The position numbers and the translations under genes were made by a program. 64,000 bases of DNA from a virus (taxonomy: Duplodnaviria; Caudoviricetes): the IMG/VR virus record IMGVR_UViG_3300042275_000327, positions 83,627 through 147,626 of that record; one strand, 5' to 3'. How positions within the stretch are numbered: the first letter of the stretch is position 1; each line of letters begins with the position of its first letter. Under the pieces are notes generated by a model. It was not told the DNA's origin, did no database searches, and was given only the letters and a program-made list of their open reading frames with translations. Below are positions 35,850 through 40,853 of this stretch, one piece after another.

Positions 35850-35891
35850 ATGTCAGGAACTATTTAATTATAGAATGGAGAATAAAATTAT

Positions 35892-36308
35892 ATGCCATCA
35901 CCTTATGTAAAATCACTTTCGAAGGAAACAGGAAAGCCAGAATCTGAAATTGAGAAACTTTGGTCTAAAGCAAAAGATATCACTTCTGACACTTTCAATA
36001 AGAAAGAAAAAGATTTTGAAGATAAAGAATATTCTTATACAGTTGGAATAGTGAAAAATATGCTTGGTATCAAAGAGGAACTTTTAGATCCTTCAAAATT
36101 TCTAAATTCTGATCTTTCAGCTAGAGAATTTATAGAGACTGTTACAAGTTCATCATTTCCTTCTTTAGACAAGAATCTTATTCCTCCTGAAGAAGATGAA
36201 GAAGAACCAGAGGAAGAACTAAAAATCACAAAAGAGAAAAAGATAGAAGTTGAATCCATTTCAGATGATGAATGGGGAACAGCTCTAGACAAAATTTTAG
36301 GAGTATAG
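35892..36308 (+). CDS. Hypothetical protein, possibly head-associated
   Basis: EIEKLWSKAK..YTVGIVKNMLGIKE; acidic tail; leads the repeat-module array. Confidence 0.55.
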   Translation: MPSPYVKSLSKETGKPESEIEKLWSKAKDITSDTFNKKEKDFEDKEYSYTVGIVKNMLGIKEELLDPSKFLNSDLSAREFIETVTSSSFPSLDKNLIPPEEDEEEPEEELKITKEKKIEVESISDDEWGTALDKILGV

Positions 36309-36314
36309 ATTAAT

Positions 36315-36947
36315 ATGAGAATTATAGAAGATTTTATTGATGATGAGTCTGATCTTTTGGTAAATAATTACGAAGATGAGTATCTTGAAGAGCCTAGTTA
36401 TTCCATGGAAGATGAATACTTTGAAGAGCCTGCGGGACTAGAATATCCTATGGAAGACGAAGATGAATTTGAACTTGAAAATTCAATGATCATCCCACAA
36501 GACGATTATGATGTTGTTCTTGAAAAAGGAGACAGAATCAAGATAGTTTCTAAAGATTTAAAAGAAGCTGTTGATCTTAGTGAAGTTGACTTCAACGATT
36601 TTGTAAGTCAAAAATTTCACTATGAACCCTTGATTAGATATTTTAATGATCTGAATATTCCTGTTAAAGATATTGTATTTGATGAGGATTTAAGAAATAA
36701 CACGATAACTGCTTCAGCTGGAAAATGGATCAGACGTGACTTAGGAATATTTTCTTATGTTCTAAACTCAGTTGAGTTAAAAACATTTGGCTCTAGAATT
36801 ATAGAAAATAAGTATGGACACCCTGTTTGGGTAACAACTTGGGCTATGGAGTATGAGACTAGAGATAAAGGAGAAAATGGTATTTCATTTACAACTTCTT
36901 GGTGTGATCTTCTAGACTATACTTGGCAATTTCAAGGCAAAGGATAA
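36315..36947 (+). CDS. LEKGD-module protein 1
   Basis: Acidic leader, then MIIPQDDYDVVLEKGDRIKIV, then unique domain. Confidence 0.75.
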   Translation: MRIIEDFIDDESDLLVNNYEDEYLEEPSYSMEDEYFEEPAGLEYPMEDEDEFELENSMIIPQDDYDVVLEKGDRIKIVSKDLKEAVDLSEVDFNDFVSQKFHYEPLIRYFNDLNIPVKDIVFDEDLRNNTITASAGKWIRRDLGIFSYVLNSVELKTFGSRIIENKYGHPVWVTTWAMEYETRDKGENGISFTTSWCDLLDYTWQFQGKG

Positions 36948-36949
36948 TT

Positions 36950-37285
36950 ATGAGAATTATACATTTAGAAAAAGATGAAAAAACTAGAGTAACCTTCAAA
37001 AATTTAAAAGAAGCAATAATAACCAAAAGTGGTTGGGTCTATGATCCTAGAAATCAAGCAATGAGTGGATATCCTACTATTGAAAAAGAAGTAGAAAATG
37101 TTCTTATTACAATTTCTTATGGTGCAGATGATATTGATCTTCCATTTGAAGTGAATATAGAGGATGAATTTAATCAAGAAATTAAAAAGTTTGCTTCAAT
37201 AGAAGGAGTAAAGAGATATATTTATAAATATTACAGACTAGTTCTTAGTAATAAAGATTTCTTTACTCTTATTGGTGATAAATAG
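36950..37285 (+). CDS. Array protein with degenerate module
   Basis: MRIIHLEKDEKTRV..NLKE; start reassigned to ATG 36950. Confidence 0.65.
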   Translation: MRIIHLEKDEKTRVTFKNLKEAIITKSGWVYDPRNQAMSGYPTIEKEVENVLITISYGADDIDLPFEVNIEDEFNQEIKKFASIEGVKRYIYKYYRLVLSNKDFFTLIGDK

Positions 37286-37310
37286 AAATGTCAAAACAAG
37301 GAAAGATGGT

Positions 37311-37736
37311 ATGAGAATTATAAATCTAGATGAGGAAGAAGAAAAGAAAAAAGAGATTGTTGAGATACAGGAAGAAGTTCGAATTCTTCAAGATGATCAA
37401 GAAATCATTCTTGAGAAAGGTGATAAAATACAAATTCTAAAAGAAAATAATTTTGATTTAGAAAATTTGATAGATCAAACAATTTCTAGTATGGAAGGTT
37501 ATTATGTTGGTTCTCCACGAGGAGAAACAACAGAATTTATTCTTGATAAACCTTTTATTCAAATTAAGAGGGATACATATGAATTTTGTGGATTAGATAA
37601 AATAAGTCATAGAAACATAGCTTTTCCTATAACAAAAAAGTCTATAGAAATTAAATCTGTAGATCATGGATTTTATAAAATAAAAGGAAATCATCCTCGT
37701 GGTAATTTTATATTTATCCAATTAAAATTAAGATAA
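37311..37736 (+). CDS. LEKGD-module protein 2
   Basis: IVEIQEEVRILQDDQEIILEKGDKIQILKE plus cargo. Confidence 0.75.
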   Translation: MRIINLDEEEEKKKEIVEIQEEVRILQDDQEIILEKGDKIQILKENNFDLENLIDQTISSMEGYYVGSPRGETTEFILDKPFIQIKRDTYEFCGLDKISHRNIAFPITKKSIEIKSVDHGFYKIKGNHPRGNFIFIQLKLR

Positions 37737-37773
37737 GACAGTAGACATCCTATAAAATGAAAGAGAGCAAGAA

Positions 37774-38187
37774 ATGAGAATAGAAGAAAACATAGTCAAA
37801 TTGGAAGACGATATTGTTATTAGACAGGATGATAGAAAGATCATCCTAGAAAAGGGTGATAGAATAAAAATTCTATTAGAGAATATAGATACTGATTTAT
37901 CTTCAATAAATTTTCTTTATTCAAAAGGATATAAAAAAACAAGTTCAGCTCTTCCAAATAATTATACACTTTTACCAACAAGAAAAAAGTGTTCCTTCAA
38001 AGAATTACTTAAAACTCTTTCAAGAGACAACTTTTCTATGACTAAGAGCTATGTTGATATCCTTGAGAATAAAGTTTTTGTCTTTAGAGGATCTAGAGAA
38101 CTATCAGATTCTTATATTAGTATAACAACCCTTGATGGGATACTCATAGATTCTGTCAGCATTTCACATCAAAAAATTGGAGATTAA
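37774..38187 (+). CDS. LEKGD-module protein 3
   Basis: IVKLEDDIVIRQDDRKIILEKGDRIKILLE plus cargo. Confidence 0.75.
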   Translation: MRIEENIVKLEDDIVIRQDDRKIILEKGDRIKILLENIDTDLSSINFLYSKGYKKTSSALPNNYTLLPTRKKCSFKELLKTLSRDNFSMTKSYVDILENKVFVFRGSRELSDSYISITTLDGILIDSVSISHQKIGD

Positions 38188-38227
38188 AGAAAAGCTATAT
38201 TGGAGCTGATTCATAGAGGAAAATAAT

Positions 38228-39091
38228 ATGAGAATAGAAGAAAAGAAAAAAGTCAGAGTTGGAAAAGTTAAGAAAGATAAGTCTGGAGAAGACTGGATTG
38301 TTCCTGTCTATGTAGATGGAAAATTTAATGATGATATGACTTATTATGCAGGTAATGGTAAAGAAGCTAAAAAAGACGCTGAAGGTACTAGAGACCAGAT
38401 GATAAAAGATATGAAGAACTCTAAAGAGTATGAACTAGAAGAAGATTTTGAACTTGAAACAGAAGAGACTATTATTGATTTGAAAGATGATATTGTTATC
38501 AGACAAGATGATAGAAAGATTATCTTAGAAAAAGGTGATAAGATCATGGTTATCAAAGAACGATTCGAGCCAAACGATATTCTTACGCTGAGTTCTGGAT
38601 TCTTGGCAAGATATGCTGGAAGCAACAAGTACAATGACATCGAGAGATTTCAGAACAAGCTCTTTATTTGGGTTCGTGATGAAGTTGCTGAGGGTAGAAG
38701 ATTCAATTCTCATGTTGATGCTATTGAGGCATTCATTGCTGAGAGGGATGAATATCGAAGAACTCACAATACCTATGAAATTGAAGTTTTCGAATCAGTG
38801 AAGATTTCTCAAGAAGATCATGACATCATCTTGGAGAAGGGAGATAAGATCAGAATTCTTGAGGATGAGAAATTCAACTACATGATGCTTGATAGACTCA
38901 GACAGGATTGTGTTTATGCAATTAATCAATCTAAAAGTACTAGACAACTTTGGGGAAAGACTGTTGATGCACATATAGCAGAAATGAGAAGACTGTATAG
39001 CTTAGTAAAAGAAAAACCAGAGTGGCTGTCTCTTGAAGATATTGATATGTACGAGAAAGAGCTGAAGAAGTTAGAAAAGTCTGGCAAGTAA
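38228..39091 (+). CDS. LEKGD-module polyprotein (2 modules, 3 cargos; last cargo LPD11-like)
   Basis: Two modules; C-terminal YMMLDRLRQDC..LWGKTVDAHIAEMRRLY..KPEWLSLEDI. Confidence 0.8.
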   Translation: MRIEEKKKVRVGKVKKDKSGEDWIVPVYVDGKFNDDMTYYAGNGKEAKKDAEGTRDQMIKDMKNSKEYELEEDFELETEETIIDLKDDIVIRQDDRKIILEKGDKIMVIKERFEPNDILTLSSGFLARYAGSNKYNDIERFQNKLFIWVRDEVAEGRRFNSHVDAIEAFIAERDEYRRTHNTYEIEVFESVKISQEDHDIILEKGDKIRILEDEKFNYMMLDRLRQDCVYAINQSKSTRQLWGKTVDAHIAEMRRLYSLVKEKPEWLSLEDIDMYEKELKKLEKSGK

Positions 39092-39119
39092 AATATATTT
39101 TAGAACGAGGCAAGAAAAA

Positions 39120-39788
39120 ATGAAAGAAAATGTAATTGAAATTCAGGAAGAAATCAGAATCCCTCAGGGTGATCAGGAACTCGTTCTAGAAAAAGGTGAC
39201 AGGCTCAGAGTTTTGGAGAGAGATGTTTCTACTTATAAAGCTCCTAAAGGTAAATCTTGGGATGCTGTTGTAAAGGAACTTGAAAGACAAGGTGCTGAGT
39301 CTGGAAAAGACTATGATCTTATAGGATCTGAAAACTTTTGGGTTAGCTATAAGTTTGATAGTCCTGAGTTACAGAATATTTTAAAGAAAACTTCAAAAAA
39401 GGAAGTAAAAATGAAAAAAATTATTGAAATCAAAGAAGACATTAGTCTTAAACAAGACGACAAGAAGATTATACTCGAAAAAGGCGATAAAATTCAGATT
39501 TTGAAAGAGGATGAAACTCTGACATGGAAAGAATTTAAGAATAGAAAACTTCTTCACAATTCTTTGTCAGAATTTGTTCTTGAAGTTTTTTATCAAAAAA
39601 TTAAATTTAATGGCGTTAACGCTAAAGCTGAGCTTGTTGCAGGAATATTGAGGATCGTTCCAGCAAGAGGAAACATTCTTCTTATAACTCCGGAGAATTC
39701 TGATATTGTAACTATCTATGAAGAATTCAACTATGGGTTTAAAATTCAGTTAGATGCTTTAGGCGCTGTTTTTTATGGATATTACTAA
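39120..39788 (+). CDS. LEKGD-module polyprotein (2 modules)
   Basis: Modules at the N-terminus and at internal ATG 39411. Confidence 0.75.
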   Translation: MKENVIEIQEEIRIPQGDQELVLEKGDRLRVLERDVSTYKAPKGKSWDAVVKELERQGAESGKDYDLIGSENFWVSYKFDSPELQNILKKTSKKEVKMKKIIEIKEDISLKQDDKKIILEKGDKIQILKEDETLTWKEFKNRKLLHNSLSEFVLEVFYQKIKFNGVNAKAELVAGILRIVPARGNILLITPENSDIVTIYEEFNYGFKIQLDALGAVFYGYY

Positions 39789-39818
39789 GATTAAATTCTG
39801 CTAAAAAGGAAAAGAAAA

Positions 39819-40106
39819 ATGAAAGAAAATGTGATTAACATACAAGAAGACGTTATTATTAAGCAAAAAGACAAGAAGATTATCCTTGAAAAAGGAGATA
39901 GAATCAAGGTTTTGAAAGAAGCTAGGGCTCCTAAGATGAAAGTAAATCCTGCAAAAGATTCATTAGAGAAAGATATTTCTAGTATTTCAAATACATTGTC
40001 TAACATGATTGATACTGCAGGCAATAATTACCAAACAGCAAGCTTTGCTAAAATTTTGAAGTCAATAAAGAAAAAAGTTGATGATCTTATTGTTCCATAT
40101 TTTTGA
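39819..40106 (+). CDS. LEKGD-module protein
   Basis: VINIQEDVIIKQKDKKIILEKGDRIKVLKE plus cargo. Confidence 0.75.
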   Translation: MKENVINIQEDVIIKQKDKKIILEKGDRIKVLKEARAPKMKVNPAKDSLEKDISSISNTLSNMIDTAGNNYQTASFAKILKSIKKKVDDLIVPYF

Positions 40107-40193: not shown

Positions 40194-40224
40194 CAGGAGT
40201 CATTAAGGTGACTCCTGCTTTTTT
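40194..40224 (+). terminator. Rho-independent terminator
   Basis: CAGGAGTCA-ttaagg-TGACTCCTG followed by CTTTTTT. Confidence 0.85.
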
Positions 40225-40277
40225 ATGGAAAATAATATGAAATTTTTAGTACACTCTTTATATAAGAGGAATTAGGA

Positions 40278-40853
40278 ATGACAGAAATAAAAGATTTTGT
40301 AGAGAGATATGTAAAGTTTGTTGATAAGATGATTTCTTCTTATAAAAATATAGGAGATCTTATCAATGAAGATTCAGGAGAGATCACTCCTGAAAAGATA
40401 AATTCTGCTCTTGCTCTTTACTATAATACTTCTCTTGCTCTGACTGCTGAATATCAAAGACAAAAAATCAACTATGAAGCAGAATCAATTGAATTCAAAG
40501 CTTGGGAGGATAGAAGATTTGAAGAAGCAAAGAAAGCAGTATTTCAGGAATATTCTGACACAAAGATCAAACCTTCTGTAAAAGAATTTGATACAAGAAT
40601 GAGAATCATGTTTGCTGACGAATGGAAAGAGAAGACTATGTCTCTTACAGAATCAGAAGCAAGAATGAGATTTCTATTGAGACTCTCTGACAATCTTCAG
40701 AAATATGATAATATTCTCACAACAATATCTTACAATATGAGAGCAGAAATGAAGTCTCTGTCTTTGGATTCTAGAATGAATTCTAATCCTGAAGGCGTGA
40801 CAAGAAATAAGATAAGAAGCAGATTTCCAGCACCTAGAGTAAAAGAGGAATAG
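40278..40853 (+). CDS. Helical hypothetical protein (possibly UvsY-like)
   Basis: 191-aa coiled-coil-rich ORF. Confidence 0.45.
   Translation: MTEIKDFVERYVKFVDKMISSYKNIGDLINEDSGEITPEKINSALALYYNTSLALTAEYQRQKINYEAESIEFKAWEDRRFEEAKKAVFQEYSDTKIKPSVKEFDTRMRIMFADEWKEKTMSLTESEARMRFLLRLSDNLQKYDNILTTISYNMRAEMKSLSLDSRMNSNPEGVTRNKIRSRFPAPRVKEE

Follow-up and report, generated by a model that had tools for sequence, protein, structure and literature searches.

Six adjacent genes of an uncultured myovirus carry eight copies of a conserved peptide module, each joined to an unrelated cargo. Sequence, structural models and analogy with phage T4 incline us to the view that this module is a capsid-address domain acting like the T4 capsid-targeting sequence (CTS). 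In the mechanism we propose, the module would act as a small, self-contained beta domain that attaches, during prohead assembly, to a protein of the phage itself. Candidates for this partner are the scaffold part of a protease-scaffold fusion and the inner face of the capsid protein, and cargo fused to the module would thereby be built into the head. The array operon would provide a changeable set of tagged cargos, gained and lost via recombination between module copies, and where a module ends in hydrophobic-x-Glu and a flexible stretch, the maturation protease may free the cargo in the manner of T4 gp21. Four of these steps are inferences from the evidence below: attachment to the prohead core, cleavage, persistence in the virion, and delivery together with the DNA.

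An array of tagged cargos

We scanned all six frames of the window, the whole 64-kb stretch of DNA analysed, and found exactly eight [LIVM]EKGD sites, all on the plus strand between 36519 and 39885. This bears out the sequence-only reading, which had placed eight module copies in six adjacent genes (36315-40106), and the window holds none elsewhere. All eight copies match the module profile at E values of 1e-16 to 1e-20, and the module core follows the pattern I-I-L-E-K-G-D-K-I-x-I-L-K-E. The array proteins are 95-287 aa long. As that reading also held, each module is followed by an unrelated domain (segments of 54-127 aa without mutual similarity), and modules lie between cargos in two of the genes (38228-39091 and 39120-39788).

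All six genes lie on the plus strand. Gene 1 (36315..36947, 210 aa) has an acidic N-terminal region, a single module (aa 45-86, nt 36447-36572) and a 124-aa cargo, and searches of Pfam and PHROG gave no match to it. The single module of Gene 2 (37311..37736, 141 aa) follows a leader (aa 9-51, nt 37335-37463) and precedes a 90-aa cargo, while that of Gene 3 (37774..38187, 137 aa) is N-terminal (nt 37777-37896) and carries 96 aa of cargo. Gene 4 (38228..39091, 287 aa) has two copies, arranged as an N-domain, a module (nt 38453-38581), a 60-aa cargo, a second module (nt 38759-38887) and a domain (aa 215-278) identified as Pfam LPD11 (E 2.8e-21; 75.8 bits against a cut-off of 27). Gene 5 (39120..39788, 222 aa) also has two, at nt 39120-39242 and 39402-39530, and the AlphaFold2 model places a helical cargo after the first and a beta-rich cargo after the second within one protein. 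The beta-rich cargo resembles PH/EVH1 domains in VIA-align (Z 6.7, a weak match), and a Foldseek search of the 222-aa model against the PDB returned nothing at E <= 0.001. The internal module of this gene retains a Met with AGGA upstream, which looks like a fossil gene start. Gene 6 (39819..40106, 95 aa) consists of an N-terminal module (nt 39819-39941) and a 55-aa cargo, and in the ESM Atlas it finds just unnamed viral clusters and low-scoring helical look-alikes. Across all array proteins, Pfam and PHROGs contain no family for the module, the sole matches being a sub-threshold partial SH3 and the LPD11 cargo, and we found no enzymatic Pfam domain.

One further gene, 36950..37285 (plus strand, 111 aa), had been taken for a degenerate module gene, an assignment that we reject. 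It has the shared MRII leader and no module, scoring -3.3 bits against the module profile, and its leader is homologous at the DNA level to that of Gene 2 (family D6). Its LEKDEK, considered as a module remnant, aligns in DNA with MRIINLDEEEEK, the acidic leader of the gene that follows, and not with LEKGD.

The array sits in an operon whose head carries a perfect copy of a late-promoter-like motif, AACTATTTAATTATA (35858..35872, plus strand), followed by a gene for a 138-aa acidic leader protein with no module (35892..36308, plus strand). The terminator noticed at the array's end is present, an intrinsic hairpin (40194..40227, plus strand) with a 10-bp stem including 5 G-C pairs, a 4-nt loop and a T run, beginning 88 nt past the last stop codon. 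We propose that the operon is transcribed late, from the motif at 35858 to the terminator at 40194. In a 531-aa relative (P0059), the N-terminal domain of the 138-aa protein runs straight into modules and cargos. Homologues of the 138-aa gene lie immediately 5' of an array of modules in relative G005 (L030) and in the late region of relative G001.

The motif AACTATTTAATTATA mostly precedes structural genes. Only two perfect copies of it occur in the 147.6-kb genome, one before the tail sheath gene and the other before the array operon. Copies with up to one mismatch number 5 against 0.15 expected, and those with up to two mismatches 12 against 2.0 expected, 9 of the 12 being on the structural-gene strand. 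Annotated genes 3' of the copies include those for the sheath, a tube-like protein, the protease-scaffold protein and a 189-aa module protein beside the capsid gene. The placing of the two perfect copies, ahead of the sheath gene and of the array operon, favours the capsid address. Two observations weaken it: the array itself is flanked by an SbcD-like nuclease gene and a ligase gene, in the replication region and outside the head cluster, and the motif is not conserved in relatives.

Peptide-level selection and predicted fold of the module

The module copies share 65-79% nucleotide identity. Pairwise divergence is far higher at synonymous sites (pS 0.84) than at nonsynonymous sites (pN 0.28), and more so in the 12-codon core (0.90 versus 0.15). 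Because synonymous sites are saturated while pN is 0.28, the module is under selection as a peptide, and the same saturation led us to reject a recent DNA repeat or a regulatory repeat. To judge by their sequences, the copies in the array are old.

AlphaFold2 models the isolated module, 30-36 residues (about 35), as a four-strand mini-domain with a core pLDDT of about 95, and confidence drops past its last strand. Each genome tends to have its own loop joining strands 2 and 3, reading QDDxK here, PGTD in relative G003 and G[NDE] in G001, although some copies deviate from the type of their own genome, such as a 75-aa protein in this phage (PGTN). Such genome-specific loops fit co-evolution with one phage-encoded partner. 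Peptide selection, loop variants, an autonomous fold and wide spread together favour a capsid address.

The module also bears some likeness to SH3 domains. Pfam SH3_1 reaches at best 20.1 bits, under its gathering threshold of 22.9 and over profile positions 9-28 of 48 only, and SH3 domains occupy 24 of the 25 best VIA-align rows at a Z of just 2.0-2.5. The model has four strands against five in a full SH3 domain, and in Foldseek it found nothing in the PDB at E <= 0.001 (best E 2.5). The module may be an SH3-like sheet that lacks a part, which the scaffold or capsid protein would supply in trans. The likeness could instead mean that the array proteins are late-expressed adaptors unrelated to the virion, with an SH3-like module docking diverse domains on a hub of the host or the phage, for instance a chaperone, protease, polymerase or membrane. 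The location of the array among replication genes and the fact that the module is not always terminal would suit such adaptors. We think them rather unlikely, since the SH3 resemblance is weak, linkage to protease and capsid genes recurs across relatives, the motif is of the late structural type, and a search of 185,579 species genomes with the strict module pattern confirmed it only in related-phage contigs, inside a MAG labelled Woesearchaeota.

Head-gene linkage and cassette exchange

A profile search of the genome found 11 module copies, the eight in the array and three outside the window. Two of the three are in the two genes immediately 5' of the major capsid gene, which supports the association with the head that had been suggested from the array, and one of these capsid-adjacent proteins is rubrerythrin/ferritin-like, an arrangement found again in G003. 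The third is the 75-aa protein, a module plus acidic tail encoded between the sheath and tube genes. The genome encodes a T4-type portal (Portal_T4), sheath and tube; the best capsid identity among GenBank phages is 27%, and there is no close cultured relative.

Relatives repeat this linkage. Between the protease-scaffold and capsid genes there are module genes at the IMG/VR loci L017 (4), L018 (2), L019 (1) and L023 (2); others lie directly 3' of the capsid gene at L017 (3), L019 (2) and L021 (2). In G001, a complete 147-kb relative, 8 of 9 copies fall in the head-to-tail block at about 28-44 kb, with a weak ninth at 24.5 kb. Genes of the array themselves have orthologues at head positions: that of Gene 6, 44% identical over 77 aa, is found between the G003 genes for the protease-scaffold and capsid proteins (L011:5995-6270), and that of Gene 2 just 3' of the G001 capsid gene (L015:6001-6285), with an alignment of about 105 aa that extends past the module. 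The location beside head genes, here and in relatives, and these orthologues favour the capsid address. A similar location, however, suits an external decoration in which the module clamps the outer capsid surface and displays variable domains, like Hoc, Soc and Dec; decoration genes often adjoin capsid genes, and late expression would be shared by both readings. Decoration seems to us improbable, as no Ig-like, lectin or other adhesion domains were found among 150 module proteins, an interior place is the better fit for the acidic tails and for cargos such as LPD11 and the ferritin-like protein, and the conserved hydrophobic-x-E end would be left without a role.

The cargos are extremely diverse. 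The module profile matches 976 protein clusters (50% identity) at E <= 1e-3, and BLAST sorts 231 non-module segments into 175 clusters, of which 148 have a single member. LPD11 is present in 4 of the 150 module proteins, and its occurrence as a cargo, being a domain of predicted injected proteins, favours the capsid address. In 50,697 phage records, blastn with the array and tblastn with a single module found nothing, and no phage paper in the full-text library searched mentions LEKGD.

Cargos vary between relatives, as the sequence-only reading had proposed to check: those at the syntenic G005 locus differ from the ones here. In relative P0085, the LPD11 unit of Gene 4 is absent through a module-to-module join, and cargo 2 of Gene 5 occurs as a stand-alone tagged gene in relative P0060. 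By these sequence comparisons, cassettes are evidently exchanged through recombination within the module, a concrete mechanism for rapid cargo turnover. Cargo segments are mostly acidic (median pI 5.0), unlike the basic T4 proteins IPII and IPIII, which weakens the capsid address.

Some members (P0009, P0018 and the 75-aa protein) consist of just one or more modules and long acidic or K/D/E-rich tails, and would suit an assembly-only role in which the module brings accessory proteins to the scaffolding core as disposable core or spacer material and not as effectors. Such proteins would be degraded and expelled at maturation, as are the T4 core proteins gp22, gp67 and gp68. Module genes do occupy the classical scaffold position between protease and capsid genes, and a terminal hydrophobic-x-E is compatible with protease processing. 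Extreme cargo diversity and fast turnover are nevertheless unexpected for structural filler, and some cargos are folded domains (ferritin-like, LPD11 and the PH-like beta domain), so that we hold this role to be unlikely.

The capsid-address reading includes a possible cut at the module's end, where conservation stops sharply past L(+9)-x-E(+11). L/I-x-E follows 65% of copies, or 84% if any hydrophobic residue is allowed at P3, and in the syntenic G005 array it is missing after most copies. In four relatives the capsid protein has, close to its N-terminus, an L-T-E that never varies and is followed by (T/A)QIS; it is a candidate maturation site like the module end. This candidate cut, with conservation ending at L-x-E, favours the capsid address; the lack of L/I-x-E after 35% of copies, and a position other than N-terminal in about a third, weaken it. 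The T4-type Peptidase_S77 (PF03420) and HK97-type S78 (PF04586) profiles have no match in the genome, where the head maturation protease, fused to the scaffold, is recognised only via PHROG 207, with GLSTSG as a candidate motif for its catalytic Ser, and a phmmer search of the fusion protein against PDB sequences gave nothing useful. Since the protease matches neither profile, a Glu-specific cut is an analogy with T4, and the case for it is weaker than that for the address. A 157-aa gene near the capsid gene, considered as a protease, proved to be a HAD hydrolase.

The sequence-only reading had proposed a capsid-targeting propeptide ending at a protease site. Head-gene linkage supports the targeting part; a folded domain of about 35 residues, with 68% of copies N-terminal and 32% internal or C-terminal, and L/I-x-E after 65%, does not fit the rest. 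With about a third of copies internal or C-terminal, a cleavable N-terminal propeptide is too simple a description.

Significance and known systems

Should the module prove to be a capsid address, its sequence would offer a simple mark for packaged, and possibly injected, proteins of a large uncultured phage group, and about a thousand clusters, nearly all without known function, would become candidate first-minute takeover or anti-defence factors. A small folded domain, and not just a short peptide as in T4, could then load a capsid, and the module might serve as a portable tag for bringing foreign proteins into phage heads. More tentatively, it may be an undescribed portable folded address of a whole uncultured myovirus lineage, loading about a thousand or more cargo families, the ferritin-like one included, and would then be the phage equivalent of encapsulin cargo loading.

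Encapsulins likewise use a portable address to send unrelated cargo into an HK97-fold shell, with ferritin-like cargo encoded beside the shell gene. Encapsulin tags are short, mostly C-terminal and bind the shell directly, in a system with no portal, tail, protease or DNA. Here there is no short C-terminal loading peptide; the module is mostly N-terminal, and the shell is that of a true tailed phage with a T4-type portal, sheath and tube.

In phiKZ-like giants (phiKZ, 201phi2-1 and SPN3US), head-internal proteins, including paralogues, are cut after Glu by a gp21-related protease, and the processed proteins are ejected with the DNA (PMC9026906, PMC5694885). Many head-internal proteins with propeptides are the likeness to the system here, whereas this phage, at about 170 kb, is unrelated to them in sequence. 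We know of no single shared folded address domain described in phiKZ-like phages, and their cleavage motif, small residue-x-Glu, is unlike the module end.

In T4, a CTS is carried by the diverse internal proteins IPI, IPII, IPIII and Alt and removed by the prohead protease gp21, so that, as here, one conserved tag serves many diverse, fast-changing small proteins (PMC3012670, PMC9026906, PMC9958956). In both systems the tag sits on unrelated, rapidly exchanged cargos, is usually N-terminal, usually ends in hydrophobic-x-Glu, and belongs to genes that are linked to or co-expressed with head genes in recombination-prone loci. The T4 tag, however, has about 10 residues and no fold of its own, whereas the module is a predicted four-strand domain of 30-36 residues and not a short N-terminal IPIII-like peptide, and the module alignment, read by eye, shows no visible similarity to the T4 IPIII leader. 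The present system also has no S77 protease match and has a third of its copies internal or C-terminal, and its packaging and cleavage are putative.

Polyvalent proteins are chains of unrelated modules for which packaging, and injection along with the DNA of a phage or plasmid, are predicted (Iyer et al. 2017; PMC5512222). The array shares with them LPD11, a polyvalent-protein-associated domain that is one of its cargos. Polyvalent proteins are very large and combine several disparate enzymatic domains, whereas the proteins here are small, mostly single units, each with its own address module.

Conserved modules and exchangeable cargos

A six-frame scan of the window for [LIVM]EKGD returned eight sites, all on the plus strand between 36519 and 39885, and together with a module profile this bears out the sequence-only reading of eight module copies in six adjacent genes (36315-40106, +). 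As that reading had it, two of these genes carry modules between cargos (two copies each; the segments preceding, separating and following the modules are unrelated to one another), and the array ends in a strong terminator (40194-40217, +). Gene 36950-37285, previously taken for a degenerate member, has no module: it scores -3.3 bits against the profile, and its LEKDEK corresponds to the acidic leader of the gene beside it. In gene 36315-36947, a 36-nt tandem duplication (36372-36431; EDEYLEEP / EDEYFEEP) lies within the acidic N-terminal region.

The aligned module reads hydrophobic-x-hydrophobic-x-E-E-hydrophobic-x-I, then a loop, then I-I-L-E-K-G-D-K-I-x-V-L-K-E. The loop is mostly genome-specific (QDDxK in this genome, PGTD and G[NDE] in the related genomes G003 and G001), with a few copies deviating from their own genome's type, such as PGTN in a 74-75-aa protein of this phage. 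Nucleotide identity among the array's modules is only 65-79%, and their synonymous differences are saturated (pS 0.84) whereas pN is low (0.28, and 0.15 in the core), which argues that selection has kept the module peptide and rules out recent duplication or a DNA-level signal as the source of the likeness. From an alignment of 25 module sequences, AlphaFold2 predicted four short strands with a pLDDT of about 95 over 20 core residues and confidence dropping beyond the last strand; the model obtained for the 222-aa protein contains these four strands in two places. We found no Pfam or PHROGs family covering the module, and its sole resemblance, to strands one to four of SH3 domains, fell below every threshold in sequence and structure searches.

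Among 1.84 billion proteins, the profile matched 976 representatives of 50% identity clusters at E <= 1e-3, and a word-indexed search yielded 430 proteins, all unnamed. The 202 proteins retrieved hold 228 modules (155 N-terminal, 58 internal and 15 C-terminal), and 231 non-module segments fell into 175 BLAST clusters, 148 of them singletons. Pfam recognised almost nothing in 150 module proteins: LPD11 in four, ferritin or rubrerythrin in two and DUF285 in one. LPD11 is a domain of the 'polyvalent proteins', for which injection together with the DNA has been predicted (PMC5512222). The second cargo of gene 39120-39788 (aa 133-222, 39516-39788) is predicted to form a PH/EVH1-like beta sandwich ending in a helix (pLDDT >90; best Z 6.7), and at least eight further proteins from metagenomes contain it in tagged, stand-alone form. 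A scan of 185,579 species genomes for the strict module pattern gave confirmed matches in one MAG alone, labelled Candidatus Woesearchaeota, on three contigs (L031, L032 and L033). These contigs are fragments of a related phage (40-70% protein identity, same gene order, GC 27-29%), probably mis-binned, and a weak host lead at best.

Over residues 109-212 of gene 38228-39091, which comprise its middle cargo and second module, P0085, a protein found in a different sample, shows 88% identity; it then runs into cargo 1 of gene 39120-39788 (82% identity, 84-residue alignment overall), with only three differences beyond the module. The crossover lies in the module's last strand, and the LPD11 unit is missing. 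In the relative P0060, cargo 2 of gene 39120-39788 stands as a tagged gene of its own, and the internal module of gene 39120-39788 retains a Met and an upstream AGGA. Together, the separate gene, the retained start signals and the P0085 recombinant indicate that the 'polyproteins' are recent fusions of tag-plus-cargo units. Cargos do vary between relatives, as had been proposed for checking: in related genome G005, the same SbcD-like and 138-aa genes precede a five-gene module array with entirely different cargos.

Module genes and the head gene block

The source record (IMG/VR, linear, 147,626 bp, estimated 86% complete; the window is bases 83627-147626) is from a contractile-tailed phage with a GC of about 32%, genes for tail sheath, tail tube and tape-measure, and a T4-type portal (PF07230 match). 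The major capsid gene (L010:14221-15642, -; L010 is a locus outside the window) matches PHROG 138 and a solved Gp23 chain, and a search with its protein for a close cultured phage in GenBank found none (best identity 27%). The N-terminal domain of a 571-aa protein (L010:1765-3480, -) matches PHROG 207 'head maturation protease'; C-terminal to it come, in order, an acidic linker, a zinc ribbon (CxxC...CxxC) and a long, scaffold-like coiled coil, so we take the protein as a protease-scaffold fusion. It matches neither the S77 nor the S78 Pfam profile, and no profile of known specificity fits. Separately, a 563-aa late-region protein (L010:8364-10055, -) has a weak PARP/ADP-ribosyltransferase match (E 0.006), reminiscent of T4 Alt.

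The array itself is surrounded by replication and nucleotide metabolism genes. Three further module copies lie outside the window, two of them in genes immediately upstream of the capsid gene. A module protein encoded directly upstream of that gene (L010:15829-16680, genome 79829-80680, -) has a rubrerythrin/ferritin-like N-domain (Pfam, 28.6 bits), and P0036 of G003 joins a module to a full ferritin domain. The 74-75-aa protein, encoded between the sheath and tube genes (L009:10451-10675, genome 50451-50675, -), consists only of a module and a 35-residue acidic tail; P0009 and P0018 of relatives have two or three modules linked by long K/D/E-rich linkers.

Related IMG/VR contigs with the same capsid family have module genes between the protease-scaffold gene and the capsid gene (four in L017, two in L018, one in L019, two in L023) and also directly 3' of the capsid gene (three in L017, two each in L019 and L021). 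In G001 (complete, 147 kb), eight of nine copies map to about 28-44 kb, within the block of head-to-tail genes, and the ninth, a weak one, to 24.5 kb. The orthologue of array gene 39819-40106 in G003 lies in the interval from the protease gene to the capsid gene, and that of 37311-37736 lies just 3' of the G001 capsid gene. The array-flanking genes, 35892-36308 and 40278-40853, are neighbours in G001; the array thus behaves as an insertion.

Two exact matches to the motif AACTATTTAATTATA exist in the genome: one lies at 35858-35872, 20 nt upstream of the 138-aa gene heading the array, and the other precedes the sheath gene. Allowing up to two mismatches gave 12 copies against 2.0 expected, and up to one gave five against 0.15. 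Nine of the 12 have the same orientation as the structural genes, and among the annotated genes downstream are those for the sheath, a tube-like protein and the protease-scaffold, as well as a 189-aa module gene next to the capsid gene. The motif was not conserved in relatives; we infer that its function bears on the timing of array expression.

Predicted address function

We lean modestly towards the module being an address domain that would bind a phage-encoded head component, its fusion partner entering the prohead with it, like the T4 capsid targeting sequence (CTS), a tag, cut off by gp21, that directs a diverse set of internal proteins to the scaffolding core (PMC9026906, PMC9958956, PMC3012670). 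Cleavage after the module, as in the earlier proposal of a propeptide ending at a protease site, is the weaker part of this mechanism. Consistent with it, the conserved stretch ends right at L(+9)-x-E(+11), whose Glu is present in 64% of copies, and the module is followed by hydrophobic-x-E in 84% and L/I-x-E in 65%. As a candidate site of maturation cleavage, the capsid protein N-terminus (here and in relatives, alignment A4) carries a conserved LENQE and, six residues on, an invariant L-T-E preceding (T/A)QIS. Against cleavage, the G005 array mostly lacks the terminal Glu, a third of modules are not N-terminal, and the protease lacks a match to any profile of known specificity.

The system would work like the T4 CTS and its internal proteins and like encapsulin cargo loading, although it lacks the defining features of either family. 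What is new relative to known tag systems is that the tag is a predicted folded domain and very widespread, and that a recombination mechanism of cargo turnover is documented here.
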